Positions 11,598 to 64,000 of a stretch of DNA of 64,000 nt are shown here, piece by piece. The translations under genes and the position numbers were made by a program. The first letter of the stretch is position 1. Each line of letters opens with the position of its first letter. This DNA comes from a virus: IMG/VR virus record IMGVR_UViG_3300046791_000587, positions 7,108 to 71,107 of that record; one strand, 5' to 3'. Below the pieces are notes generated by a model that was not told the DNA's origin, did not search any database, and was given only the letters and a program-made list of their open reading frames with translations.

Positions 11598-12497
11598 ATG
11601 CGGGTTCTCGGATCCGCCGATGATTCGGAGGTGCTCGAGCTTGAGGATGAGCGGTTCGCGGATGGTCCTGACGGGTCGGTGATGTTTCATGCGGCGCCTG
11701 CGTATCTCAGCCAGCGACTTCCGTCAACCTTGCGAGGCCCATGGTTGCCGCGTACGCTTCGGCGCGTGGCGACCGATCCGAACTTCGATGCCGACGTAAT
11801 CCGGGCCAGGGCGATCTATGATCAGCTTGCGGTCTGGATCGACCGCTACCGCGGCGGTCTGCCCGGGGGCTGGATGGCCTCGATCATCTTGCATGAGAGC
11901 GGCGGGAACTTCGGGGCCCCCGGAGACCCCTCGCTCGGCGAAGTCGGCTACATGCAGGTCGCGGCGTACGTGCCGCCGCTATTCGGCTATGACGCGGGCG
12001 CTCGCTCGGACCCCGAAAGCAACATCGCCATCGGGGTGCTTGAGTACGAATACGAGGCCGTGCTCTGGATGCTCGCATTCCCCGAAGCCATCCTGGGCAC
12101 GGACGATTCATGGAAGCTCGCGCGGCTCGCCTTCGCCGTGGGGCGTGCGGGGTCGCATCAGCTCGCTCAGCTTGCCCAGGTGGCGCTCGGAGGGCTCACG
12201 ACCGGAGACGTCTACCACGACATCGCCAAGTGGACCGCGTCCACCGGAGCAGTACCGCTGGGCAGCCAGACCGCAGCGAAGGTCGCCGCCCGCGTGCTGG
12301 ACATCGACCGGCAGTGGGCCATCGGCCAGGCGGTCTCCTCGGGGCTCAGCGGTCTCCCGACCCTCATCCCCGATCCCCCGGCGGGCCCCTACACCATCCC
12401 AGCGGATGCGGAGCCCTACTTCACGGAGCCGGTTTCTGGTAGTCTGATGATCACTCTCGGTGCTCTCGTTCTGGGGTACCTGATCTTCACGAGGTGA
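11598..12497 (+). CDS. lytic transglycosylase (SLT/lysozyme-like fold) with C-terminal membrane anchor
   Basis: SIILHESGGN catalytic ES motif, GYMQV, NIAIG; terminal TM SLMITLGALVLGYLIFTR. Confidence 0.75.
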   Translation: MRVLGSADDSEVLELEDERFADGPDGSVMFHAAPAYLSQRLPSTLRGPWLPRTLRRVATDPNFDADVIRARAIYDQLAVWIDRYRGGLPGGWMASIILHESGGNFGAPGDPSLGEVGYMQVAAYVPPLFGYDAGARSDPESNIAIGVLEYEYEAVLWMLAFPEAILGTDDSWKLARLAFAVGRAGSHQLAQLAQVALGGLTTGDVYHDIAKWTASTGAVPLGSQTAAKVAARVLDIDRQWAIGQAVSSGLSGLPTLIPDPPAGPYTIPADAEPYFTEPVSGSLMITLGALVLGYLIFTR

Positions 12498-26291: not shown

Positions 26292-26424
26292 GCCCGAGCC
26301 ACCATCGGCTACAAAGTAGGACGGCGCCGGTTGCCCAGCGCCGTCTTTCCCTTGAGCGGAGGCCGCCCCCGATTGCCTGAACATGTTGTACAGTAGGCTG
26401 CAGACGAGTTCAAGGAGATCGAAG

Positions 26425-26583
26425 ATGGGAGACGCTTTGGTGTTGCTGCTGATGGCCTCGGGCCTTCTCGTGCTGTTCTCTGGAGACGCCGAGTCGGTCA
26501 AGGTGATAGTCGTGCGCTGCTTGATGACGCTTGCCCTGTTCGGAGGCGCCGTCGTCGTGTGGGCGCTCATGAGGGCGCAGTGA
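26425..26583 (+). CDS. small two-TM membrane protein
   Basis: SD AAGGAG; hydrophobic. Confidence 0.5.
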   Translation: MGDALVLLLMASGLLVLFSGDAESVKVIVVRCLMTLALFGGAVVVWALMRAQ

Positions 26584-29717: not shown

Positions 29718-30374
29718 ATGGCGAGATCCCGACTGCACCGCCGGTACGTCAAGAAGACCTTCAAGGCGAACCCGCCGCTGTTCACGGACCTCGTGGAGTT
29801 CGTAGTGCCGGGGTTCGGGGGGTTCGCGGCCACCCGATTCGTGACGCGCGTCGCCATGACCCAGGTCGCCCAGCGGGCGCCATCCTGGGGCAAGCATGCC
29901 GGCGCCGTCGCCTCGGTCGGTTCTTTCCTGGCCGCGTGGTTCCTCGCCCACAAGTGGAAGTGGCTCGAGAAGTGGCACACCTCCATCGTGGTCGGATCCG
30001 CGATCGCGGCCGGGCAGTCACTCCTCCAGATCTATGCCCCGAACCTGCTGGGCTGGATCGTGTCGGACGCCACCCCGGATGTCTCGGCGACCAGCGCGTC
30101 CCAGGCGGCCATCTCGGCGCCCGACCAGCAGCTGGCCCAACTCCAGCTTCAGCCGACGAACGAGGACCCGAACGAGTTCATGTACAACGACAGCTATGAT
30201 GCTGGGCGGTACAGCGGCTCGCACGGGCCGAGCTCGATGAAGGTCGGCCCGGTCCCGCCCGGCAAGACCGGGCCGCCCCAGGAGTCGCCGCCGGCCGCGG
30301 GCGATCTTGCGGACCTGGCGATCGACGACGCGATCGGCTCGGCCAACCTGGGCGTGTTCGCCAACGCCAACTAG
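29718..30374 (+). CDS. candidate virion membrane/core protein, paralog of 63209-63985
   Basis: Basic N-terminus, ANPPLFTDL, three hydrophobic helices, acidic tail. Confidence 0.65.
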   Translation: MARSRLHRRYVKKTFKANPPLFTDLVEFVVPGFGGFAATRFVTRVAMTQVAQRAPSWGKHAGAVASVGSFLAAWFLAHKWKWLEKWHTSIVVGSAIAAGQSLLQIYAPNLLGWIVSDATPDVSATSASQAAISAPDQQLAQLQLQPTNEDPNEFMYNDSYDAGRYSGSHGPSSMKVGPVPPGKTGPPQESPPAAGDLADLAIDDAIGSANLGVFANAN

Positions 30375-30380
30375 GAGGAC

Positions 30381-30737
30381 GTGATGTCGTACTTCCGCAA
30401 GGCCAGCATTCGCCCTCGCGCACTGTCCGGGGTGTCGACGACATTCCCGGTCCACTGGAAGCCGCGCGTCCCGTTCGGTGCGATGGGATCGCTGGGCGAC
30501 GACACGTCAGGCGCGGCCACGATCACCAGCCCCACGCTGACCGTGACCGCGCCACCCGAGACATTACAGTGGCAAGCCAACGTGCTTTCTCAACTCCAGG
30601 CTGGGGTGGCCACCCTGCAGAAGGCAGAGCTCCAGAAGTGGCTCCAGATCGCCGCGACGCTGTCGATCCCGGTGGCCGGCGCGATCTGGAAGATGATCTT
30701 CAAGAGAGGCGCCGCCAGCATCGGAACCGGGATCTAG
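30381..30737 (+). CDS. candidate virion membrane protein (leader-GD family)
   Basis: MSYFRK...GAMGSLGDD; C-terminal hydrophobic helix. Confidence 0.6.
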   Translation: MMSYFRKASIRPRALSGVSTTFPVHWKPRVPFGAMGSLGDDTSGAATITSPTLTVTAPPETLQWQANVLSQLQAGVATLQKAELQKWLQIAATLSIPVAGAIWKMIFKRGAASIGTGI

Positions 30738-43182: not shown

Positions 43183-44603
43183 GGCTCCTGGAACGACATC
43201 CCCTGGGCCTCCAGCGCCGCCCGTACGCGCGCGTTGTTGAACAGGGTGCCTTGCTTCAGGTCATCGCCCCAATCGAGCACTGCGGTCACGACGAGGCCTT
43301 TCTCGCGCCGGTCGTCGGCGTAGGCGGTGGCGTGCCCCAGGCTCTCCCATCGGGATGCGCTGATGCTAGCGTGGAGAGTCCACCCGCTCCCCGAGGAGCC
43401 GGCGACGACCATGACCACCGCCCACCGCCCGGTGTTGTTCCAGTCGAGGCCATCGGGCCAGAGCAGGGGGCGGTTCACGATGTGCAGCGCCACGACCTCG
43501 CGCGGGTCCGCCACAGCTTCATGGAGCACGGCGTTGCAGTCGACGCACTCGAGCCTGAGCAGTAGCCGAGCGGGGTCGGCGAACGAGATTTCGATCATGT
43601 GACCGTTCTCGCGGATCACGCGCGATGATCCCGGGATCGTCGAGTCTGGCAACGGGATGTCGATCGCCTCGGCATCACGGTGCTGCTGGCTGAACCCTCG
43701 CTCGTCTGGCATGTCGCAGATGCCCCAGCGCATGCAGCCACCCTGCGGCGCCGGCGCGAACAGCGGGAACTGCTTGCCGCCATGGTCGGTCCTGGCCCAC
43801 TTCACCACCGCTTCGATGCCTGAGACGCCTCGAGCCCTGGTCTGGAAGAACGAGGCGTCATCTACGTGCTTGTACCGGCCGGGCTGCTCCTCATTGCGCG
43901 CGATCCGTAGCGCCAGCATGTCAGTCTCGAGCTGGCGGATCTCGTCGATGCGCTCCGGTGAGTGCTGGGCGATCAGCGCGATCTCTTCCTTGCCGGCGTA
44001 GATGCAGGGGTAGCACCCCACACGGCTGTGGCCGCGCTGGTACAGGGGGTTGACCTTCACGCCGTGCCGGTTGTGGATGGTGAGCACATCCTCGATGGTC
44101 CACTGCAGGAGCGGGCGCCAGACGTAGCCGCCCCACGAGCGCTGACCCTCGGGTTCGTCCTCCCACTCCGCCATCTTCGCGCGGGCCGCGCTCTCGGCGG
44201 CTCGCACCCCCATCGCGCTCACGGTCTCAGCGCCGGTCTCCTCGGTCAGCCGATCGTGGTACGCCCGCAGAGGATCGATCTTGAGCTCCATTGTGCACCA
44301 CCGCTGCATCCGACCGGGGAAGCCAGCGCGATGGGCGATGCGGGCGCGCATGCCACCCTCGACACCCACCACCACGATCTCGATGTCGAGCTTCTCGCGT
44401 AGGTAGTCCAGGTAGACGTAGGTCTCAGGCGCCTCCCACCCGGTGTCAGCGAACGCAAAGCGGAGCAGGTGGCGCGGGATCTCTCCGCGTTCCACGGCCT
44501 CGAGCAGGGCCAGGATCAGGGCTGTCGAGTCCTTCCCGCCCGACACCGAGGCCACGACCAGTAACCCAGCGGCGTCCTGGGGGATCCTGATGCGCATGAT
44601 CAT
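43179..44603 (-). CDS. PAPS-reductase-family (PP-loop, Fe-S) protein with C-terminal extension
   Basis: SVSGGKDS, FADTGWE, RWCTMELK, GVRAAES, RPLLQW, NPLY..G.SRVGCYPC, CxxWGIC. Confidence 0.9.
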   Translation of the reverse strand: MIMRIRIPQDAAGLLVVASVSGGKDSTALILALLEAVERGEIPRHLLRFAFADTGWEAPETYVYLDYLREKLDIEIVVVGVEGGMRARIAHRAGFPGRMQRWCTMELKIDPLRAYHDRLTEETGAETVSAMGVRAAESAARAKMAEWEDEPEGQRSWGGYVWRPLLQWTIEDVLTIHNRHGVKVNPLYQRGHSRVGCYPCIYAGKEEIALIAQHSPERIDEIRQLETDMLALRIARNEEQPGRYKHVDDASFFQTRARGVSGIEAVVKWARTDHGGKQFPLFAPAPQGGCMRWGICDMPDERGFSQQHRDAEAIDIPLPDSTIPGSSRVIRENGHMIEISFADPARLLLRLECVDCNAVLHEAVADPREVVALHIVNRPLLWPDGLDWNNTGRWAVVMVVAGSSGSGWTLHASISASRWESLGHATAYADDRREKGLVVTAVLDWGDDLKQGTLFNNARVRAALEAQGMSFQEP

Positions 44604-45454
44604 GTCCTGCTCCGCTTCCCTGTCCGCCGTCCCCGCTGCTGCCCCATCGCCATCACCAGCGCCTGCTCGATGCCTAGCGTTTCATCCATCACAGTCGACT
44701 TTACAGCGTCAAGCGCCAGCCGCTCGACGTCCGCGAACGACATCCCCGCAAGCCGTGCGGGCCAGGCCTTCCACCCGGGCGGCGACAGCTTGGTGACCGT
44801 CCGGGTGTCGTAGCGCTCCACCAGGCGCTTCAGGAGCGCTGCTGCCTGGATGGTGGTGGGCTTGGGGAAGGTCACGATCTTGTCGAACCGGCGCTCCATG
44901 GCCACGTCCAGCATGTCCTGGTGGTTGGTCGCCGCGACTAGCACGGAGGCCTGGCCGGCGAACTCCTCAAGCATCACCAGGAGCGAGTTCGTGATGCGGT
45001 TCATCTCCGCAACGTCGCTGAGCTGGCTGTTTCTCGCGCGCCCGATCGCGTCCACCTCATCCAGGAACAGCACCACACGCTGAGACCGCGCGAAGTCGAT
45101 CACCTTGCGGAGGTTCTTGGAGGTGTCCCCCATGTACCGGTCGATGAGGCCATCGAGGCGGACGACGACCAGCGGGATGCCCATCGCCAGCGCCAAGCCA
45201 CCGGCCGCTACGGTCTTCCCGCATCCGGGCGGCCCCTGGAACAGGAGTCGGTTGGCTGCGCGCAGACCACGCGTCCGCAGGTCCGCGGTGCGGAGGTTCT
45301 CGGCCAGGACACGGCCCAGCGCCTCGCGGGGCTCGTCTGGCAGCACCAGATCTGTGAGCGGCCGCAACTCCTTGACGTGGTCGAGGAGGGCCGCATCCTC
45401 GCCCAGCGGCAACTGCATGAGCGTAGGTGTCGCCATGTTCCGGGCGGTAGTCAT
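44600..45454 (-). CDS. AAA+ ATPase
   Basis: GPPGCGKT, LFLDEVD, AATN, RRFD; ATGA overlap. Confidence 0.9.
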   Translation of the reverse strand: MTTARNMATPTLMQLPLGEDAALLDHVKELRPLTDLVLPDEPREALGRVLAENLRTADLRTRGLRAANRLLFQGPPGCGKTVAAGGLALAMGIPLVVVRLDGLIDRYMGDTSKNLRKVIDFARSQRVVLFLDEVDAIGRARNSQLSDVAEMNRITNSLLVMLEEFAGQASVLVAATNHQDMLDVAMERRFDKIVTFPKPTTIQAAALLKRLVERYDTRTVTKLSPPGWKAWPARLAGMSFADVERLALDAVKSTVMDETLGIEQALVMAMGQQRGRRTGKRSRT

Positions 45455-52213: not shown

Positions 52214-52303
52214 TCAGAACTTGATCCTCTCGGAGGTATGCCACGCCGACCCATCGAAGAGCCCTTCGCTCAGGACGCGACCTCGAAGTCCGGTTCCAGT
52301 CAC
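52214..52303 (-). CDS. 29-aa peptide carrying repeat copy 2 (not in supplied track)
   Basis: GTG overlaps upstream TGA; MTGTGLRGRVLSEGLFDGSAWHTSERIKF. Confidence 0.35.
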   Translation of the reverse strand: MTGTGLRGRVLSEGLFDGSAWHTSERIKF

Positions 52304-52515
52304 TTCCTCCAGAACAGAATCCACGCCGCCACAGCCGCGATCGCGACCTTGACCGGCATGGACAGGCCACCCGTGGCGCTCTCCACGGCCGCATCGTCAC
52401 CGACGTACATGAGCTGGTTGACGCCGCTGGCGGCGGGCTTGTGGTAGGTGATCTTCACGCCGCTCCCGATGGCTTCTCGCAGGGTGCGCCGACTGCGGTT
52501 GCTCTCGCGGTGCAC
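52300..52515 (-). CDS. candidate virion membrane protein (leader-GD family)
   Basis: LMYVGDD; C-terminal VAIAAVAAWILFWRK. Confidence 0.6.
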   Translation of the reverse strand: MHRESNRSRRTLREAIGSGVKITYHKPAASGVNQLMYVGDDAAVESATGGLSMPVKVAIAAVAAWILFWRK

Positions 52516-53613: not shown

Positions 53614-54228
53614 TCACCCGTCGCTGAACAGCAGCCACAGGAACAGCGCGGCGCCGCCGACCAGCAGGGCGGTCCCGAAGATCCCCATCGAGGCGCCTGA
53701 CAGCCACCCCAGCGGGTCCTCGTTGTTCGTGAAGTTGTCCTCCCCCGCTGCGAAGTCGGGCACCATCTTGTCCCGCACCTCCCAGTGGGTGTGGTTGGCC
53801 GAACTCGTGATGCCGACCTGGTCACCGGCCACCACCTGCGCGCCGATCGGCGCCATGGACGATGTCACCGGGTCCAGGTGCCCCAGGAAGTGGAACTTCC
53901 CGCTGTTCTCGCCCTGGATGATGATGAACCACGGTCCGTAGCCCACGAAGGGCGCCTGGCTGCCGGTCCCGGCCATGACCACCGCGCCGCTCTCAGGCGC
54001 CACCACGGACGTTCCGGCAGCGCCAGCGACGTCGAGGCCTGGATGCCTGCAGGGATAGCCGGAGACGCCGCAGGAGCCATCCGCGGGCGTGGAGCGCACC
54101 TCGAGCCACCCACCGTGCGCGCCAACTTGGAGCGGGTAGATGGGCGGCTGGGGCCTGCCCGGCTCGGGCGCGGGGGTCTCGACGGGGGTTGCACCCAGCG
54201 CCGGCCCGCGGAGGCGCGCGTACGTCAT
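53614..54228 (-). CDS. M23 metallopeptidase with C-terminal membrane anchor
   Basis: HPGLD, VVAPESG.V, FLGHL, HTHWE; terminal LLVGGAALFLWLLF. Confidence 0.85.
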   Translation of the reverse strand: MTYARLRGPALGATPVETPAPEPGRPQPPIYPLQVGAHGGWLEVRSTPADGSCGVSGYPCRHPGLDVAGAAGTSVVAPESGAVVMAGTGSQAPFVGYGPWFIIIQGENSGKFHFLGHLDPVTSSMAPIGAQVVAGDQVGITSSANHTHWEVRDKMVPDFAAGEDNFTNNEDPLGWLSGASMGIFGTALLVGGAALFLWLLFSDG

Positions 54229-57043: not shown

Positions 57044-57988
57044 ATGGGATTGCCTCATCCGATGACGTATGAGTTCGCCGTCGATGTGCCAGCCGCAACG
57101 CTCCGCGTGGAGGACATCACCGGTGCCTATGCGCGGTCTCGTGAACGCGCCATCAGCGCTGCCGGCCCCAGGGACAGCCACAAATGCCGTTACTGCGGCG
57201 TGGGATGGGTCCCATGGCCCGGAACGCAACTCGATGGTCATGCTCGCTGCATCGTAACCCCTGACTTCCAGGATGAGCTCTGGCGGCTATGGCTGGTGTC
57301 TCGCGAGTTATCCCTCTCCGTGGCATCCCGCCTGTGCGGGGTCCCGCATGGCTATATCAAGGCCTGGCTGGCCTATGCTGAGCGCCGTCATCGTCGTTCG
57401 CGAGAGAGCCCGAGATCGCCCAAGGGTCAACGTGGCGGGTCGAACCGACGCCCAGAACCGAGCCTGGTAACCCGAGTCCGTGCCTTATTCCATGCCAACC
57501 CGCTGTCATATTTCGCGTTGAGGGACGTCCCTGCGCATCTCGACATTCCAACCACCGTCGCCAGAGCGCGACAGGCGATCCGACGCCTTTGCGCCTCTGG
57601 GGAAGTTCTGCGTGTGCGCCACGGTATTTACGGGATCACTCCGCTCCCAACTGACACAGAGTGGTCGCCCAGCAGCCTATCCAGGCGCCCTGTATCGGAG
57701 ACGTATCAGGCAAACTACTGCCGCGACAAACGGGCCGCCAACAAGGCGGCAGGTCGCTGCAGAAATGACACGAAGAACCGCTCCCACGGGCCGCCAGTGG
57801 CGGGCGGCGTCTTGTGCGAATCCTGCCTGGAGGCCCGCCGCAAGCGCGAGACGAGAAGATCAATGAAGGCAACCTCTACTAAGCGGGCGGTCGACTCAGC
57901 ACATCGCCCTTCGCGTGTTACTCCGCCTTCTTCTTCCGCAGCAGCAGGAACGCCCCCACCGCCAGCCCCCCGACGAGCAGGATCGTAG
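57044..57988 (+). CDS. multi-module protein (Zn, HTH, wHTH, HGPP-Zn module)
   Basis: AAGGAGTTCAACGATG start; shares module with 56138-56509. Confidence 0.5.
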   Translation: MGLPHPMTYEFAVDVPAATLRVEDITGAYARSRERAISAAGPRDSHKCRYCGVGWVPWPGTQLDGHARCIVTPDFQDELWRLWLVSRELSLSVASRLCGVPHGYIKAWLAYAERRHRRSRESPRSPKGQRGGSNRRPEPSLVTRVRALFHANPLSYFALRDVPAHLDIPTTVARARQAIRRLCASGEVLRVRHGIYGITPLPTDTEWSPSSLSRRPVSETYQANYCRDKRAANKAAGRCRNDTKNRSHGPPVAGGVLCESCLEARRKRETRRSMKATSTKRAVDSAHRPSRVTPPSSSAAAGTPPPPAPRRAGS

Positions 57989-58181
57989 TCGTGCTGGGAC
58001 CGCTCTGCGCGGCCAGCGCCGCCTGCAGATCTCGGCCGCTCTGAGCGGCGGCGCCCTGCGCCTGCTGCGTCGCCCCGTAGACCTTGAGCGCATCGCCGGC
58101 CGCGCTGGTGATGGTGTCCCACCAGTCCCCCACCCCGGAATACCCGGTGCGAGCGATGAGGTCGTTTCTCATGTACGCCAT
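57918..58181 (-). CDS. candidate virion membrane protein (leader-GD family)
   Basis: YSGVGDW; C-terminal LLVGGLAVGAFLLLRKKK. Confidence 0.7.
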   Translation of the reverse strand: MAYMRNDLIARTGYSGVGDWWDTITSAAGDALKVYGATQQAQGAAAQSGRDLQAALAAQSGPSTTTILLVGGLAVGAFLLLRKKKAE

Positions 58182-58192
58182 GGTGGTCTCCT

Positions 58193-58621
58193 TCAGCGCC
58201 GCGACAGCATGACGGCGATCAGCACGGCGCCGCCGGCAAGCGCCAGCATCGTGCCGGTGGACATGCCGGTGCTCGCGCCCGGGACGATGACGGTCGTGGG
58301 CGGCGCGATGGCGCCGGTGATGGCCCGGGTGATGCTGTCCAGGATGCCCCCGCCGCCGCTGCTGGAGCTCGCCGACGACCCGGCCGGATGAGCGGGGTCG
58401 GGGTCGACCGAGTACCCTGGCGCACGGTAGGTGGACCCGTCGCTGTTGAACGTGGTGGTTCCGCCATCGGGCGTGGCGCAGTAGTTCCCGGGCTTTCGAT
58501 ACGGATCACCCAGGGGGATGGTTGAGCACTGATCGGCATCCGTGAAATCGCCCATGCCCATCAGGGCGCGCCGGCGCGGCATGACTCGAGAGGGAAGGCG
58601 GGGACGCTTGAAGTAGGCCAT
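58193..58621 (-). CDS. candidate virion membrane protein (leader-GD family)
   Basis: LMGMGDF; C-terminal LAGGAVLIAVMLSRR. Confidence 0.7.
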   Translation of the reverse strand: MAYFKRPRLPSRVMPRRRALMGMGDFTDADQCSTIPLGDPYRKPGNYCATPDGGTTTFNSDGSTYRAPGYSVDPDPAHPAGSSASSSSGGGGILDSITRAITGAIAPPTTVIVPGASTGMSTGTMLALAGGAVLIAVMLSRR

Positions 58622-58625
58622 GGGG

Positions 58626-58874
58626 TCACTCCTTGGACCAGAGCCAGTATGCCAGATAGGCGAGGCCGCCCCATAGCACGTACTGACCCAGCCCTGACGA
58701 GGGGGCGGGCGTCGGTGGTGACGGTGTCATCGGCATCACGCCGGATGGGACCGCGAAGGGCGGCGACGCCACGACCGCCACCGGCGAGATCCCCATGGTG
58801 TACGTCGCCGTGGACGTGGTGTCACCCATCGTCATGAACGAGGATCGCGGCGTCTTCCGCATGGTGTACGGCAT
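58626..58874 (-). CDS. candidate virion membrane protein (leader-GD family)
   Basis: FMTMGDT; C-terminal LWGGLAYLAYWLWSK. Confidence 0.7.
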   Translation of the reverse strand: MPYTMRKTPRSSFMTMGDTTSTATYTMGISPVAVVASPPFAVPSGVMPMTPSPPTPAPSSGLGQYVLWGGLAYLAYWLWSKE

Positions 58875-59161
58875 CACGCCCTCTTCTTGCGGGTGAAGTA
58901 GTAGAGCGCCAGGACCGCGCCTCCCGCGAGCACCATCTTCGTGGTGTCGCTCATCCCCTGATCGGCGGCGGGCCCGGTCGGCTGGGTGCCCAGCACGGGC
59001 GCGATCAGACCCGTGAGCCACGCCAGGGGGCCGCCGCCGGTTGGTGTGCTGGCGGTCGCCCCGCCCGCGGTGGGCGCTGGCGGAGGCGGGCACGTCGAGG
59101 GGTCGACCTGGCACGGATCGGTGACCGGACCATCCCCCATCCCCGGGCGGAAGTAGCTCAT
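58874..59161 (-). CDS. candidate virion membrane protein (leader-GD family)
   Basis: RPGMGDG; C-terminal LAGGAVLALYYFTRKKR. Confidence 0.7.
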   Translation of the reverse strand: MSYFRPGMGDGPVTDPCQVDPSTCPPPPAPTAGGATASTPTGGGPLAWLTGLIAPVLGTQPTGPAADQGMSDTTKMVLAGGAVLALYYFTRKKRA

Positions 59162-59757
59162 GGCGACCTCTTGCGGAAGAAGAGCAGGTACGCGGCGACC
59201 GCCGCCCCGCCCGCGATGAGCACGTTCCGCATGGTGTTGTCCGGCGCAGGGACCGGGAGCGGCGCGGCGCTGGAGTCGTCGAGGATCGGGATCGGCGGGA
59301 TGGCCACGGTCGCGGACGGCGGTCCCATGGCCACGCCGGTTCCGCCTGAACCCGATCCGCTCGAGGATGCCGCCCCGCCGCTCCTCACCGGCGGCATGGG
59401 CGCAGGCGCTGCTGCGGGCGGCGGGGTGTAGACTGGATCGATGAGCAGGGGATGGCTGGCGGACACATCGCTGATCACGGGAGGCAGCACCAGCACCGGC
59501 ATCGGTGGCTTCGGCGACTGCAATGGATTGGGGAGCTTGAGCGGCGGCGGCGCTGCCGGCCGCCAGGTCCACGCCGTCATTCTCGAGCTGGCGCTCGCGC
59601 CCAGGGACCCACGAGCCACGTTGGCCATGACACGATCACGAGCCTGCGTCGCCTGTACAACCCGGGCGTGGCGCCGCTGTCGGGCGGGTGATCCATCGGC
59701 CGACGCGATCGCTCCCACGCCGCGCGTCATGTAGTCGGGATCTCTCGTGTAGGCCAT
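59158..59757 (-). CDS. Pro-rich candidate virion membrane protein
   Basis: RGVGA/GSLGA; C-terminal IAGGAAVAAYLLFFRKR. Confidence 0.7.
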   Translation of the reverse strand: MAYTRDPDYMTRGVGAIASADGSPARQRRHARVVQATQARDRVMANVARGSLGASASSRMTAWTWRPAAPPPLKLPNPLQSPKPPMPVLVLPPVISDVSASHPLLIDPVYTPPPAAAPAPMPPVRSGGAASSSGSGSGGTGVAMGPPSATVAIPPIPILDDSSAAPLPVPAPDNTMRNVLIAGGAAVAAYLLFFRKRSP

Positions 59758-60137
59758 CAGTGATGCCCTCCGTGCCCGCCCCCGCCATGCCCACCACCGC
59801 CGTGGTGACCTCCTCCTCCTCCGTGATGGTGGCGACCGCCACCGCCCCCACCGATGATCCCTCCCCACGATGGGCCCCATCCCCAGTCAGGCCAGTAGGC
59901 GTCGTAGTTGTCGTCCGGCTGGACGATGACGACCGCTGGGACGATCGCGCTGGCGCCGGCTTGAGACGGATCCGCCGCCGCAACGATGTCCGCCGCCGAC
60001 GCGTCGCTCCCGGAGGACGAGGGCTTCGCTGCGGTGACCCCCGATGTCGCTGCAGCGGTCTGCGTTGCCTGCTTCTTGTAGAGGTAGTAGCCGACCGCCG
60101 CGGCACCACCCAGGAGCATGAGCGTCGAGGTCTTCAT
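59757..60137 (-). CDS. N-anchored membrane protein with Gly/His-rich tail
   Basis: LLGGAAAVGYYLYKK; GGGGGRHHHGGGGGHHGG. Confidence 0.65.
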   Translation of the reverse strand: MKTSTLMLLGGAAAVGYYLYKKQATQTAAATSGVTAAKPSSSGSDASAADIVAAADPSQAGASAIVPAVVIVQPDDNYDAYWPDWGWGPSWGGIIGGGGGGRHHHGGGGGHHGGGGHGGGGHGGHH

Positions 60138-60139
60138 GA

Positions 60140-60469
60140 TCACTTCCTCCCCAGCTCGTATCCGACCCACATCGGCAACCCGATGACGGCAGCGACGAGG
60201 ACCGGGTACACCCACTTGTTCTGCTGGGCGTAGACGTACCCGCGCAGCACCGGCAGGACGTTCTGGATCCACGGGCTGCCCAAGCCCGGGACCGTCTCCG
60301 CGCAGATCGGGACCGGCTGACCGCGGTCGATGGATTGGAGCTGCTGGATCCTGCACACCACCTCGGGCATGGCCGGATCGTTGGCGACGTCGAGCACCGT
60401 GCCGATGGTGCCGATGACGTCGCCCATCGCCTGGGATGGAAGCCGCTTTCGATATCGCTGGTAGCTCAT
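60140..60469 (-). CDS. candidate virion membrane protein (leader-GD family)
   Basis: SQAMGDV; C-terminal TM. Confidence 0.7.
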   Translation of the reverse strand: MSYQRYRKRLPSQAMGDVIGTIGTVLDVANDPAMPEVVCRIQQLQSIDRGQPVPICAETVPGLGSPWIQNVLPVLRGYVYAQQNKWVYPVLVAAVIGLPMWVGYELGRK

Positions 60470-60617
60470 GGTCCACCTTTGCTCGTGGGATCTCGCCTGA
60501 GGTCGCCCGTCGTTGGGCTGACGCCTTTTCCGGGGCTTGAGGTTTCACCGTGGGAAAGGAGACCGCGGTGCTCTCGTACGCCAGCTTGCATCGACGAGCG
60601 GCCTCAGGCGAGATCGA

Positions 60618-61220
60618 TCACGATCGTCCTTTCTTCTCGAAGGTGTGCTTGATGCCGAGCTTCTCCCATGCGAACCACGCGATGGCCACGACGCCGCCGA
60701 CCTTGAGCCAGAAGCCGTAGTCCGTGCACGCCCCCGCCTCGATGCAGGCCTTCTCTTCCTGATCCTTGGCCACGTCCGCTGCGCTCTTGATCGCGGTCGT
60801 GGCCACCAAAAGGAGCCCGCCGACGATGAGCACCGGCCACAGCCATGGGTGCCCACCCGCACTCAGGATGTTGCCGGTCGGCGACGGGCTCGAAACCGTG
60901 GACGCCCCGGTAAGGGCGATCTGCGCCAACTGCACGGCACCATCGGGATTGACCGACAGGTCGGGGCTGGGCAGCGACTGGCCGGGGAGCAGTGCAGAGA
61001 GGAGCGCGGACAGCCTGATGGCGAGATCCTGCTCGACCGCCAGGTCACGCTGGGCGACCACGCGCTGCGCGTAGGCCAGCGGCTTGCGCACCCTGGCGGT
61101 CCCGGCCATGACCCCATCGTTGATGGTCCGGTACTTGAGCCAGGACGCCAGGGCGCCCCGCATCTTGGCGAGCTCGGCGGCCGCCTGTTGGACTTCCTGC
61201 GTGGTGATGGCGGTCGTCAT
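60618..61220 (-). CDS. two-TM candidate virion membrane protein
   Basis: WLWPVLIVGGLLLV and FWLKVGGVVAIAWFAW. Confidence 0.65.
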   Translation of the reverse strand: MTTAITTQEVQQAAAELAKMRGALASWLKYRTINDGVMAGTARVRKPLAYAQRVVAQRDLAVEQDLAIRLSALLSALLPGQSLPSPDLSVNPDGAVQLAQIALTGASTVSSPSPTGNILSAGGHPWLWPVLIVGGLLLVATTAIKSAADVAKDQEEKACIEAGACTDYGFWLKVGGVVAIAWFAWEKLGIKHTFEKKGRS

Positions 61221-61729
61221 CGCTTGGGCTCCATGAGCCACCACGCCGCCAGGATCCCGGCAGCAAGGAGGATCGTTCCACTGGAAAGTCCGGTGTCGGT
61301 CACCACGCCGCCCGCGGCCGGCGGGATCCCGAGAGAGTCGGCGAGAGCCTGGAGGGTGCGAGTCACGTCGGTGAGGCGCCCCGTGACGAACCCGACCGGA
61401 TCGGCGAAACCAGCGTTCGCGGCAGTGATGGCCTGCTGGGACCCCACATCGTGAAACTGGTTGTACGCGTCGGTCGCGCGGCGCTGGTAGATCGTGAGCG
61501 CCATGGTGGCCAGCCCGATGTTCATCGGGAGGAGCGAGATCCCGAACATGGCCGGCGGGGCCGTGAACGGATCGGTCACAAACTGGTATCCCGACGGCGC
61601 GGTCTGTCCGAACCTGTTCACCTGGGCCACGAGGTCGCTCACCGTGGCATCGCCGCCGATGTCGCCCATGGCTCCGCCCGCGCCGCTCGCGCGGATTCCC
61701 GGACGACGATGCGGGGCGAGGTAGACCAT
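61217..61729 (-). CDS. candidate virion membrane protein (leader-GD family)
   Basis: GGAMGDI; C-terminal ILLAAGILAAWWLM. Confidence 0.7.
   Translation of the reverse strand: MVYLAPHRRPGIRASGAGGAMGDIGGDATVSDLVAQVNRFGQTAPSGYQFVTDPFTAPPAMFGISLLPMNIGLATMALTIYQRRATDAYNQFHDVGSQQAITAANAGFADPVGFVTGRLTDVTRTLQALADSLGIPPAAGGVVTDTGLSSGTILLAAGILAAWWLMEPKR
61275..61288. promoter_or_regulatory. GTTCCACTGGAAAG (parS-like candidate)
   Basis: Match to recurrent palindrome within a CDS. Confidence 0.55.
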
Positions 61730-62355
61730 CAGAGGTTCACGATGCGGAAGCCCGGGAAGTCGACGTGAAGCGTCCCCTGTGTCGGCGCGACCGCGCTGTT
61801 CCATGTGATCGCTTGGTAGATGGGCACGAAGTTCAGGGTGGCGTTCGGCGCCCATTGCACCGGCGACGGGAGCGGCACCACGTTGTCGGGCCGACTGAAC
61901 AGCGGGCCTCGGGGCGAGTTCTGGAACTGGCGCTGCGATCCGCCGTCGATGATCTCGTACTGCAGATCGATGATGTCGGTCGACACCACCTGCGTGGGCA
62001 GCGGGAATGTGGAGACCGGACGCCACCGGCCGAAGTTGGTGGTGTTGTCCGGCGCGTTCGGGAACCAGAGCACCAGCGGGTAGTGCGTCTGGATGAACGG
62101 GCCATCCTGGCTCACCGTGATGATCACGGGCGTGGCGCGCTTCCCCAAATCCGAGATAGTGAACGTCACCTCGCCGGACAGCGTGCTCTCGATCCACCGG
62201 CCGGGGATCTTGTTGATCTCGTCCCAGACGGTGTCCGGCTTGGTCTGCAGCCCGTTCACCTGCGCGATGAGCTGATTGACGGTGTTCTGTAGCAGTGTGA
62301 TCGCTGACTTGTGCGTGCGCACCGCTGCTTCAAGGACGTTCGGGGGCGTGGTCAT
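61729..62355 (-). CDS. candidate second jelly-roll capsid/vertex protein with N-terminal coiled coil
   Basis: ~160-aa beta-rich domain ending LHVDFPGFRI; directly downstream of the MCP candidate. Confidence 0.5.
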   Translation of the reverse strand: MTTPPNVLEAAVRTHKSAITLLQNTVNQLIAQVNGLQTKPDTVWDEINKIPGRWIESTLSGEVTFTISDLGKRATPVIITVSQDGPFIQTHYPLVLWFPNAPDNTTNFGRWRPVSTFPLPTQVVSTDIIDLQYEIIDGGSQRQFQNSPRGPLFSRPDNVVPLPSPVQWAPNATLNFVPIYQAITWNSAVAPTQGTLHVDFPGFRIVNL

Positions 62356-62489: not shown

Positions 62490-63065
62490 TTACTGAACGT
62501 CGCGAGTTTGCAAACCGTCGAGCATGAACAGGATGTTCTTGATGTCGGTCTCGTCTCCGGTGTTGAGCCCGTTCAGCGCGCTCGTCGTGCCGATCGCGAA
62601 GAAGTCCGCCTGGGCGGCGAAGTTCTGGCGAACCGGCACGATGATCGGCCGTGCGAGCTTCAGGATCGACGCCTGCTCCGGGGTTCCGTGCGAGAAGATC
62701 GACGCCGTGGAGTCGAAGCCCCACACGCCGCCGCCCGCCGGGTAGTACCAGCACGGCGCCTGGAACATCGGCTTGGTGCCGACGACCAGGGTCCAGAACA
62801 GCTGGCTGGTCACGTTCAGGTAGTTGTCGCGACGGTTCGGGCCGTCGAAGAACATGAAGCAGCGCAGCGCCAGGATGACGTAGGTCTGATCCGACGCGAG
62901 CTGGCCGGCGGTCTGGAGGTTGGTCAGCGCCAGGTTGCCGATGTTGGCGTTGCCGAACAGCTTCGTGCTGTTCACGATCGGCGTCGTCGGATCGCCGGTG
63001 GTCCGGATGAGGGTGTCCCAGAGCGGCTGGTGCAGGCGCTCGCGGTATCCATGAAGACGAGGCAT
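62490..63065 (-). CDS. candidate single-jelly-roll major capsid protein
   Basis: 191 aa, beta-rich, strongly biased codons, TNLxxAGQL, YVILALR, LARPIIVP, MLDGLQTRDVQ; flanked by structured spacers. Confidence 0.55.
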   Translation of the reverse strand: MPRLHGYRERLHQPLWDTLIRTTGDPTTPIVNSTKLFGNANIGNLALTNLQTAGQLASDQTYVILALRCFMFFDGPNRRDNYLNVTSQLFWTLVVGTKPMFQAPCWYYPAGGGVWGFDSTASIFSHGTPEQASILKLARPIIVPVRQNFAAQADFFAIGTTSALNGLNTGDETDIKNILFMLDGLQTRDVQ

Positions 63066-63208: not shown

Positions 63209-63985
63209 TCAGCCGCCCCCGCCGAACTTGCCGCCGAAGATGCCGGCGTACAGGTCCGCGGAGTTGTCGTATGCGTGCGTCACGGCCGGGATCTGCTTGG
63301 TGAAGCTCCTGGCCGGGATCGGGGCGATGAATGCCTGCGACGGTACCGGCTTGAGCATCCCCATGGACCCGCTGACGGGACCCGGCAGGCCACCCATCAG
63401 TACGTTGCCCAACTCCTCCTCCACGCCGAGTTCCTCCTCCACGCCCATGCCCAGTTCCTCCTCCACGCCATCCCCGCCGACCGCCACGTAGTCGGACAGC
63501 GTGATGCGCTCGTTCAGCGGGGGCGCGCCCCCGACCGCCACGTAGTCACCCATGTTGACGTACTCGCCGATGGCCGACTGGACGCTGGCCGGCGCGAACG
63601 CGTTCCAGAGGGACGCGAGCAGTTGGAACCCCGAGCCCAGCATGGCCGCCTCGCGGTGCCGTGACAGCGCCCCCACCTTCTTCGTGACGAAGTGCGTCAG
63701 GGCCAGCGACCCCAGCGAAAGGACCGGCCCCTGGAGCGTCCCCAGCGAGGACACCACAGGCAGCATCGGGCCGAACTTGTTGACGATCATCCGGTTCGCC
63801 AGGAAGGAGAGAGCGACCGGGATGGCGCGCTTGAGCTCGGTGAACAGATCACCGATGCCGGGGTTCCGCCGGTAGCGACGGTAGGAACGCCGACGCGAGC
63901 GCCGGTGGGACACACGACGCCGCGTGGAGTACCGACGACGGCGCGAATGGCTCCGCCTCCGCTTGCGCCGACGGCCCGGGTTCAT
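63209..63985 (-). CDS. Arg-rich membrane-associated core protein candidate
   Basis: Poly-Arg N-terminus, RRNPGIGD, hydrophobic helices, YVAVGG x2 and EEELG x3 repeats. Confidence 0.7.
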   Translation of the reverse strand: MNPGRRRKRRRSHSRRRRYSTRRRVSHRRSRRRSYRRYRRNPGIGDLFTELKRAIPVALSFLANRMIVNKFGPMLPVVSSLGTLQGPVLSLGSLALTHFVTKKVGALSRHREAAMLGSGFQLLASLWNAFAPASVQSAIGEYVNMGDYVAVGGAPPLNERITLSDYVAVGGDGVEEELGMGVEEELGVEEELGNVLMGGLPGPVSGSMGMLKPVPSQAFIAPIPARSFTKQIPAVTHAYDNSADLYAGIFGGKFGGGG

Positions 63986-64000
63986 CCGGACGGTGGCCGC

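Follow-up and report, generated by a model that had tools for sequence, protein, structure and literature searches.

A common N-terminal tag on otherwise unrelated membrane proteins of a bacterial virus, and a candidate protease encoded in the same operon

The structural operon and its leader-bearing proteins

The stretch of viral DNA analyzed here (the window; 64,000 nucleotides) comprises bases 7108-71107 of the 79,908-bp IMG/VR record IMGVR_UViG_3300046791_000587 (G000 below), a genome of ~65% GC that carries a 127-bp direct terminal repeat and is rated complete. About 12 otherwise unrelated membrane proteins of this virus begin with a common short tag, or leader, made up of Met-x-Tyr, usually basic residues, and a hydrophobic-Gly-Asp/Ala ending (h-G-[D/A], where h is a hydrophobic residue), which from its sequence is probably a sorting or cleavage signal. 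The tag is concentrated on the C-terminally anchored membrane proteins of a structural operon that extends beyond the end of the window and, owing to the terminal redundancy of the genome, continues across the terminal repeat; a few carriers lie elsewhere, among them an M23 peptidase, and the capsid-like proteins have no leader. The peptides quoted in a preliminary description of this DNA (YSGVGD, LMGMGD, FMTMGD, RPGMGD, SQAMGD, GGAMGD, AMGSLGD, LMYVGD, and NPGIGD/VNMGD) were all found where it had placed them, and the carriers are, as it had claimed, otherwise unrelated: no BLAST match was found among them within G000, and no mutual similarity was detectable.

On the minus strand, 57918-58181 encodes an 87-amino acid (aa) tail-anchored membrane protein with a GGAGA Shine-Dalgarno sequence upstream; its leader is MAYMRNDLIARTGYSGVG-D (58125-58181, with YSGVGD; here and below, the hyphen before the final residue follows the Gly), its C terminus reads ...LLVGGLAVGAFLLLRKKKAE, and its orthologues in four genomes retain M-x-Y and G-D or G-S. 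Three further tail-anchored membrane proteins on this strand are a 142-aa protein (58193-58621) with the leader MAYFKRPRLPSRVMPRRRALMGMG-D at 58547-58621 (LMGMGD), which in orthologues ends ...RRRALMGFG-A and ...ALLGLG-T; an 82-aa protein (58626-58874) with MPYTMRKTPRSSFMTMG-D at 58821-58874 (FMTMGD); and a 95-aa protein (58874-59161) with the minimal leader MSYFRPGMG-D at 59132-59161, whose apparent counterparts in relatives, assigned by position since BLAST found none, start MSYHRRGMG-D, MSYIRPMG-D, and MSYFRSPFG-D. A 109-aa membrane protein (60140-60469, minus strand) has the leader MSYQRYRKRLPSQAMG-D at 60419-60469 (SQAMGD), and in its alignment (A3) M1, Y3, R7, and the Gly are invariant and the leader varies in length. 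In the 170-aa tail-anchored protein at 61217-61729 (minus strand) the leader is MVYLAPHRRPGIRASGAGGAMG-D (61661-61729; GGAMGD), and the leaders of its orthologues range from 9 aa (MTYLRPMG-D) to 29 aa.

Further carriers have variant ends. They include a 199-aa tail-anchored protein (59158-59757, minus strand) that starts MAYTRDPDYMTRGVG-A (59710-59757) and whose orthologues start M[GAS]Y[TE][RK]D.D..TRGVGA; a 204-aa M23 metallopeptidase with a C-terminal transmembrane (TM) helix (53614-54228, minus strand; PHROG metallo-endopeptidase, E 2.7e-10), which starts MTYARLRGPALG-A (54190-54228); and a 52-aa membrane protein (52300-52458, minus strand) with the leader MKITYHKPAASGVNQLMYVG-D, reading MKITYHKP...LMYVG-D from 52458, in which SQLMYVGD is conserved in five genomes. 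Outside the main cluster, a 117-aa membrane protein on the plus strand (30384-30737) has a long leader, MSYFRKASIRPRALSG...GAMGSLG-D (30384-30500), with ...LGSLG-[D/E/A] conserved in five genomes. The tag is also borne by a 230-aa protein whose origin is clearly different from that of the other carriers. A 66-aa open reading frame (ORF) on the plus strand (26383-26583) that starts MLYSRLQTSSRRSKMG-D is a doubtful carrier, with poor Shine-Dalgarno spacing and no orthologues, and its motif may be a chance match. The opposite design is seen in the membrane protein at 59757-60137 (minus strand), which lacks a leader, carries its TM helix at the N terminus (MKTSTLMLLGGAAAVGYYLYKKQ), and ends in a Gly/His-rich tail (GGGGGRHHHGGGGGHHGGGGHGGGGHGGHH). 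A 168-aa protein at L012:2827-3333 (minus strand), with ...YIHEHDAGV..., ...LYATPDGKCLL..., and the end MWGG.LGV..RGI[DV][GH], has no family match and is conserved in all relatives, always inside the membrane-protein cluster.

The most conserved gene (62490-63065, minus strand) encodes a 191-aa major-capsid-like protein, and a second capsid-like protein of 208 aa is encoded next to it (61729-62355, minus strand). Beyond them, 63209-64000 (minus strand) encodes the C-terminal half of a protein that is protamine-like and membrane-associated, is roughly 530-545 aa long, and runs off the window (the rest is at L012:2-1033). This protein has the conserved start ILYVNGKRRG..., followed by ~330 hyper-basic residues with R-R-N-P-A-R-R-R repeats; the sequence ...YRRYRRNPGIG-D (63848-63865) joins the hyper-basic N-terminal ~330 aa to a hydrophobic domain, and three DY[VI]x[VM]G[DAG] units and EEELG repeats come after that domain. 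The junction leading into the hydrophobic domain has the form NPG-[IGD/LGD/GEIMD/NMILD]. A 218-aa paralogue of the hydrophobic domain (29718-30374, plus strand) has a 20-aa basic leader (MARSRLHRRY...NPP) that lacks G-D. In L039 (72% GC), the basic tails of two tail-anchored proteins end ...KNPARRRR and ...SNPARRRRRRR, matching the NPARRR unit of the protamine-like protein, which suggests that the C-terminal tails face DNA.

Enrichment, composition, and conservation of the leader

To count the motif we searched all six frames of the whole genome with the regular expression M.Y[^*]{2,45}?[MVLI]GD. The search gave 10 matches, eight within the window and two in the part of the operon beyond it, where 0.28 were expected from dinucleotide shuffles (maximum 3) and 0.64-0.70 from shuffling residues within ORFs (maximum 4). 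The motif is thus enriched over shuffled sequence (10 observed versus 0.28-0.70 expected). The four complete relatives gave 9, 3, 4, and 6 matches versus 0.5-0.9 expected; in the two relatives with 3 and 4 matches the count merely equals the largest shuffle, and the excess is clear in the other two. All 10 matches in G000 start at the first Met of their ORF, and nine have a GGAG/GAGG-type Shine-Dalgarno sequence 6-10 nucleotides upstream, the exception being the doubtful ORF at 26383. A C-terminal anchor had been ascribed to the carriers, and a hydrophobic C-terminal TM helix was indeed present in every match; the Lys/Arg tail after the helix was found in nine of the 10. Among 634 predicted proteins from five genomes, those with an M-(x)-Y start strongly tend to have a C-terminal TM helix as well (odds ratio 16.6; Fisher p = 5e-20, a value inflated by the non-independence of orthologues). 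Met, Val, Leu, and Ile are the residues of bacterial start codons, and we considered an internal start at this residue before Gly-Asp; it was rejected, as there is no Shine-Dalgarno sequence before those codons, one does precede the M-x-Y start, and M-x-Y is itself conserved.

To examine conservation, we drew on eight viral contigs of 55-86 kb and one 23-kb fragment as relatives, four complete ones being compared orthologue by orthologue. Orthologues retain M-x-Y and h-G-[D/A], and the leader between these ends changes in both length and sequence, as in MVYLAPHRRPGIRASGAGGAMG-D, MTYLRPMG-D, and MSYMAPRDFAAWQRAHGLRPYRRRGAMG-D. We tabulated 36 leaders. The search pattern itself fixes L/M/V/F/I at position -2 and Gly at position -1; position 0 is Asp in 25 and Ala in 11, and position -3 is small (G/P/A/S) in 30. 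A second invariant, overlooked in the preliminary description, lies at the start: Tyr, or rarely Phe, occupies residue 3, mostly after a small residue 2 (S/T/A/P/G), and is followed by a hydrophobic residue 4 and, in 19 of 29 leaders, by Arg or Lys as residue 5. The net charge drops from +2.7 in the leader to -2.3 over the next 20 residues. Leader length ranges from 8 to 40 aa across the table and differs even among close orthologues. Fixed ends around an interior of free length form a pattern that, at the level of sequence, is typical of detachable targeting peptides.

The [M/V/L/I]-G-D ending proposed earlier is conserved in the main, but its Asp is Ala in ~30% of leaders, and orthologues sometimes have G/T or h-S-G. 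Likewise, its position after a short Tyr/Arg-rich leader holds for most carriers but not for the gene at 63209, where NPGIGD lies ~335 residues into the protein. The motif is carried by a 43%-GC relative (MAYTLPRDRQRHRRHVRRMRQYRAMG-D, ...LFG-D, and ...LTG-D) and by relatives of 57-72% GC (MSYLGLG-D, MYYPVG-A, and MPYFTGTPTNGLG-A). Since the Gly and Asp codons vary from site to site and the motif is kept at 43-72% GC, selection acts on the peptide, not on DNA or RNA. Taken together, the conserved ends, the enrichment, and the codon variation bear out the view that the motif is a genuine protein-level signal.

Known export and sorting signals do not account for this architecture. Sec, Tat, lipoprotein, and prepilin signals were rejected, as the leaders lack a hydrophobic core and give way to acidic, polar sequence; no NCBIfam match to an N-terminal signal domain was found. 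At the other end of the carriers, the Gly-containing TM helix and Lys/Arg cluster resemble the LPXTG, PEP-CTERM, and GlyGly-CTERM sorting domains in a generic way only. These domains were also rejected, since no signature motif (LPXTG or PEP) precedes the TM helix and the carriers have no N-terminal Sec signal. One carrier does score 16.4 bits against the LPXTG_anchor cut-off of 15.9, in a match that covers only profile positions 10-32, the helix and the basic tail.

A transglutaminase-fold protein and the wider gene content of the virus

The preliminary description had found no protease for the motif in the window, which holds; a candidate is encoded in the same operon just past the window end. 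This gene (minus strand, ~79646-79781 plus 1-530 of G000, that is, L012:8747-8882 and L011:1-530; orthologue L020:10316-10879) adjoins the gene of a 611-aa membrane protein (MAYNLPPPW...) and encodes a 187-aa protein that is the second most conserved of the virus (70-76% identity). All five complete genomes have the gene, as do the other relatives wherever the fetched sequence includes this part of the operon, and an exhaustive phmmer search gave 893 representatives. C108 (in DCDD), H146 (SHVF), and D163 (LDPVAAE) are invariant in 26 sequences (alignment A1). An AF2 model (pLDDT 81.5) matched the putative cysteine proteases 3kd4 and 3isr in a Foldseek search of the PDB (E 2e-4 to 9e-4), as well as LapG, TgpA, and PeiW/PeiP, and transglutaminase-like clusters in AFDB (E 6e-10, TM score 0.68-0.74). 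The family is recognized only through fold comparison and intermediate homologues: no Pfam or NCBIfam match to the protein was found even at E <= 1, including C93 and Transglut_core, and a profile search of its alignment against PDB sequences found nothing. Remote homologues do carry Pfam Transglut_core, and one of them aligns at 36% identity with all three residues conserved. In one homologue an intein is inserted exactly before the Cys of DCDD; inteins usually occupy catalytically essential sites. By its modeled fold and its Cys, His, and Asp residues, the 187-aa protein is a predicted transglutaminase-fold (papain-fold) Cys-His-Asp protein and a candidate cysteine protease.

Homologues of ~300 aa are natural fusions in which this enzyme is joined to a module (xVYSVFDY...G-I-x-P...KVG-G...) followed by a TM helix and a basic tail; in G000 the module is a separate 96-aa carrier, MRYSVYNHD... 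(L012:4043-4333). This fusion to a TM-bearing module ties the enzyme to the membrane. In distant viral contigs (21-138 kb; enzyme 33-37% identical), the enzyme gene stands directly before runs of tail-anchored proteins, several with an N-terminal h-G-[D/A], and in some distant lineages the enzyme is itself membrane-anchored. L043 and L044 (64-78 kb contigs) represent a sister clade with a membrane-anchor-fused enzyme, a protamine-like protein, and a 223-aa capsid-like protein, then five or six more paralogous beta-rich proteins ending GYK[VI]...; no run of small tail-anchored genes occurs in the stretch covered.

Other proteases were sought in Pfam scans that covered essentially all predicted G000 proteins. 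An Ulp1- or adenain-like protease, which had been suggested as the enzyme to look for, is not encoded: the scans revealed no Peptidase_C5, C48, or C57, and the only cysteine-protease-like protein has a transglutaminase fold, not that of clan CE. Nor did they detect a gp21-type prohead protease or, apart from the candidate and M23, any other protease family. M23 is a Gly-directed (Gly-specific) peptidase family, and the M23 peptidase was therefore considered as a general processing enzyme; it was rejected, as its gene is absent from the complete relatives G004 and G005, both of which still have leaders. The 168-aa protein at L012:2827-3333 was rejected as a protease, since distant orthologues do not retain its His and Asp and the leads from the Atlas were weak and at odds with one another. 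A complex prediction for the 187-aa enzyme (A1) with carrier residues 1-60 (A3) scored 0.25 against a mark of 0.32 and counts neither for nor against their association.

Few genes of G000 are recognizable overall. Pfam identified a tyrosine integrase, a PAPS-reductase-like protein, DUF5131, an ice-binding-like insert, GP88, DUF1643, an AAA+ ATPase, a dual-specificity phosphatase, DnaJ, and DUF968, and the M23 metallopeptidase was recognized by PHROG; beyond that, scanning the carriers and the structural operon with Pfam and PHROG yielded nothing informative. The product of window 11745-12497 (plus strand) matched no SLT or other lysozyme family in Pfam (E <= 1e-3) or PHROG. No tRNA genes were found in G000, and the Pfam scans revealed no terminase, portal, tail, prohead-protease, or FtsK/HerA-type (A32-like) ATPase families. 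A Walker-A scan showed that the AAA+ protein (window 44600-45454) is the sole true P-loop ATPase, and it is not conserved in relatives. The Shine-Dalgarno sites and the M23 peptidase point to a bacterial host. Lineage contigs of ~68-89 kb (L035-L040) have been binned as Peribacteria, Galbitalea, Myxococcales, Gemmatimonadota, Thermomicrobiales, and Deltaproteobacteria; the labels conflict with one another, probably through mis-binning, so that they are not to be taken as hosts and host assignment from metagenome bins was ruled out.

Public data contain 649 homologues of the capsid-like protein at 62490-63065, almost all of them 191 aa long. The structural model of this protein is of low confidence (pLDDT 60), and its best fold matches, the VP16 protein of P23-77 and the single jelly-roll capsid proteins of SH1 and HHIV-2, are weak (E 4e-3 to 3e-2, TM score 0.27-0.36), as are Atlas leads to the PM2/PRD1 capsid families. 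P23-77, SH1, and HHIV-2 are viruses with an internal membrane. The virus is large and apparently tailless, and its capsid may be of the jelly-roll type. No homologues of the capsid-like protein or of the enzyme were found in deposited phage genomes, and literature searches found no published description of the virus group or of the motif. The lineage, with >600 capsid-protein variants in metagenomes, genomes of 75-86 kb, and no recognizable terminase, portal, or packaging ATPase, appears to be undescribed.

Possible roles of the leader and comparison with known systems

We tentatively favor, with less than even confidence, the explanation that the tag is a leader for sorting to the virion membrane and for maturation, and that the viral 187-aa transglutaminase-fold cysteine protease cuts it behind the invariant Gly. 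The two fixed ends, M-(small)-Y-(hydrophobic)-(R/K) and (G/P/A/S)-(L/M/V/F/I)-G-(D/A), would act as recognition elements, and the interior would be a disordered spacer of free length, usually basic. The leader would mark tail-anchored proteins of the viral membrane for incorporation into the assembling particle, after which the enzyme would cut behind the Gly, with a hydrophobic residue at P2, Gly at P1, and Asp or Ala at P1'. Cleavage by this enzyme is favored because a hydrophobic P2 and Gly P1 suit a papain fold and because the operon includes the enzyme among its core genes; the S2 pocket of papain-fold enzymes (clan CA) usually has a specificity that such a pair of residues, hydrophobic at P2 and small at P1, matches. 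If the h-G-D site of the 63209 protein were also cut, a protamine-like polypeptide would be freed from the membrane-associated domain, a conjecture reminiscent of adenovirus core-protein maturation.

Several points weigh against cleavage of a detachable leader by this enzyme. The Asp/Ala, and sometimes the Gly, is substituted in some orthologues. In the MRYSVY... carrier family the M-x-Y start is part of the conserved module xVYSVFDY..., which in other viruses is internal, fused behind the enzyme, and M-x-Y is therefore not in every case a tag that can be detached. By the positive-inside rule, the N-terminal domains of the carriers would lie in the periplasm, away from a cytoplasmic protease. 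In the distant clade of L043 the enzyme is conserved, and no leader-bearing genes were found in the fetched 15-kb stretch. Finally, cell-wall endopeptidases (PeiW/PeiP) and cross-linking enzymes share the transglutaminase fold, so the viral protein could act instead in entry or lysis, as a peptidase of the cell wall, or as a cross-linker.

That the tag is never removed is also possible, and nearly as likely as a cleaved leader. It would then be a short linear motif for recognition or anchoring that, by binding to the lattice of capsid or scaffold, to acidic lipid head groups, or to DNA, concentrates the viral membrane proteins in the future virion-membrane patch, with Gly-Asp merely a hinge and charge switch. 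Conservation, enrichment, and the association with a TM helix fit this equally well, the protamine-like protein contains repeated internal units of similar form (Y-h-x-h-G-[D/A/G]), the M-x-Y segment of the MRYSVY... family is a conserved module that is internal in fusion proteins, and basic-aromatic N termini would be plausible ligands for a membrane interface or DNA. However, some leaders are as short as 7-9 residues and almost or entirely uncharged (MSYLGLGD and MYYPVGA), which leaves little for binding, and a free interior length with indels next to a strict h-G boundary suits a protease site better than a hinge.

Cleavage by a host enzyme, the leader mimicking a host N-terminal extension, seems to us unlikely. 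There is a precedent for a common N-terminal leader on phage structural proteins cut by a host cysteine protease, in the capsid and scaffold proteins of staphylococcal phage 80alpha, which mimic the leader of ribosomal protein L27 cut by Prp (PMC5744158), and the function of the viral transglutaminase-fold protein is putative; yet the motif is kept in relatives of 43%-72% GC, probably with very different hosts, no such leader was identified on a host protein, and the bin labels for the host disagree. We consider it very unlikely, the least probable of these explanations, that the tag has no signal function and is a remnant of an ancient duplication of a small membrane-protein gene or a by-product of start context or high GC. 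The genes are clustered and have one architecture (a short N-terminal part, a low-complexity middle, and a C-terminal TM helix), as tandem duplication could produce, but there is no residual similarity outside the two ends, which stay fixed with synonymous codon variation while the rest diverges over 43-72% GC. Moreover, composition-keeping shuffles give only 0.3-0.9 matches per genome, and the tag also occurs on the M23 peptidase and the 230-aa protein, which are of clearly different origin.

A more far-reaching version of the cleaved-leader explanation, which we regard as rather doubtful, is that this lineage of widespread, uncultured, large membrane-containing bacterial viruses has evolved particle maturation by a transglutaminase-fold protease independently of adenoviruses and giant viruses. 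The enzyme would cut after h-Gly in ~12 membrane-anchored precursors and release basic peptides resembling mu, together with a protamine-like core protein of ~330 aa, which would jointly condense the 80-kb genome inside the vesicle, the leader doubling as a sorting code into the viral membrane.

In its general form the tag recalls that of the internal proteins of phage T4, which is ~10 aa long, ends (L/I)-x-E rather than M-x-Y...h-G-D/A, and is cut by the T4 prohead protease. This capsid targeting sequence is a short N-terminal tag on otherwise diverse virion proteins and directs them into the assembling particle (PMC3012670). In both cases a short conserved N-terminal tag is the sole common feature of otherwise unrelated proteins; in T4, however, the system consists of a gp21-type serine protease and soluble scaffold-core binders in a tailed phage, whereas here it would consist of tail-anchored membrane proteins and a candidate transglutaminase-fold Cys protease. 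A common leader is likewise found on the 80alpha capsid and scaffold proteins, from which the L27-like N-terminal sequence is removed by the host cysteine protease Prp (PMC5744158). Prp differs in being a host enzyme of another fold that acts on another motif, and its substrates are capsid and scaffold proteins rather than membrane proteins. Among the structural relatives of the 187-aa candidate, LapG (Peptidase_C93) is a periplasmic, calcium-dependent enzyme that removes the N-terminal module of a surface protein at a small-residue site, and the virus-encoded PeiW and PeiP cut cell-wall isopeptide bonds (pseudomurein endoisopeptidases). The candidate differs from them in lacking a Pfam C93 or Transglut_core match, and the cell-wall role of PeiW/PeiP represents a rival function for it.

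As to the virus itself, two adjacent small capsid-like genes (191 and 208 aa) and many small membrane proteins are shared with the Sphaerolipoviridae-type viruses (P23-77, SH1, and HHIV-2; Helvetiavirae), whose genomes measure 17-31 kb versus 75-86 kb in this lineage; no FtsK/A32-type packaging ATPase was found here. We know of no report of a shared leader in those viruses. To our knowledge, the question of how membrane-containing bacterial viruses select their internal-membrane proteins has no settled answer, even for PRD1, and it would become testable if nearly all membrane proteins predicted for one lineage carried a short N-terminal code that can be transferred.

The preliminary description had likened the motif to the maturation sites of adenoviruses and poxviruses. 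Adenain matures pVI, pVII, pX(mu), pVIII, and pIIIa, poxvirus I7L cuts at AG-X, and African swine fever virus (ASFV) pS273R cuts at GG-X. The likeness lies in Gly-containing sites common to many virion core or membrane-proximal precursors, with basic DNA-condensing proteins among the substrates, and in non-tailed viruses with jelly-roll capsids. The difference is that those enzymes belong to clan CE (Ulp1-like), none of which is encoded here, and that the host here is bacterial. About one-third of the sites resemble the adenain consensus (M/I/L)XGX-G, and set against both (M/I/L)XGG-X and (M/I/L)XGX-G the leaders show a partial fit, in which Gly stands at -3 in 14 of 36 leaders and L/I/Y/F at -5 in 18 of 36. 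Because the candidate has a transglutaminase fold and is not a clan CE enzyme, the comparison can be kept as an analogy only. Among non-tailed jelly-roll viruses, we know of such maturation only from adenoviruses, poxviruses, ASFV, and related eukaryotic viruses, and if the tag is cut by the 187-aa enzyme, proteolytic maturation of core and membrane proteins would gain a convergent bacterial counterpart.

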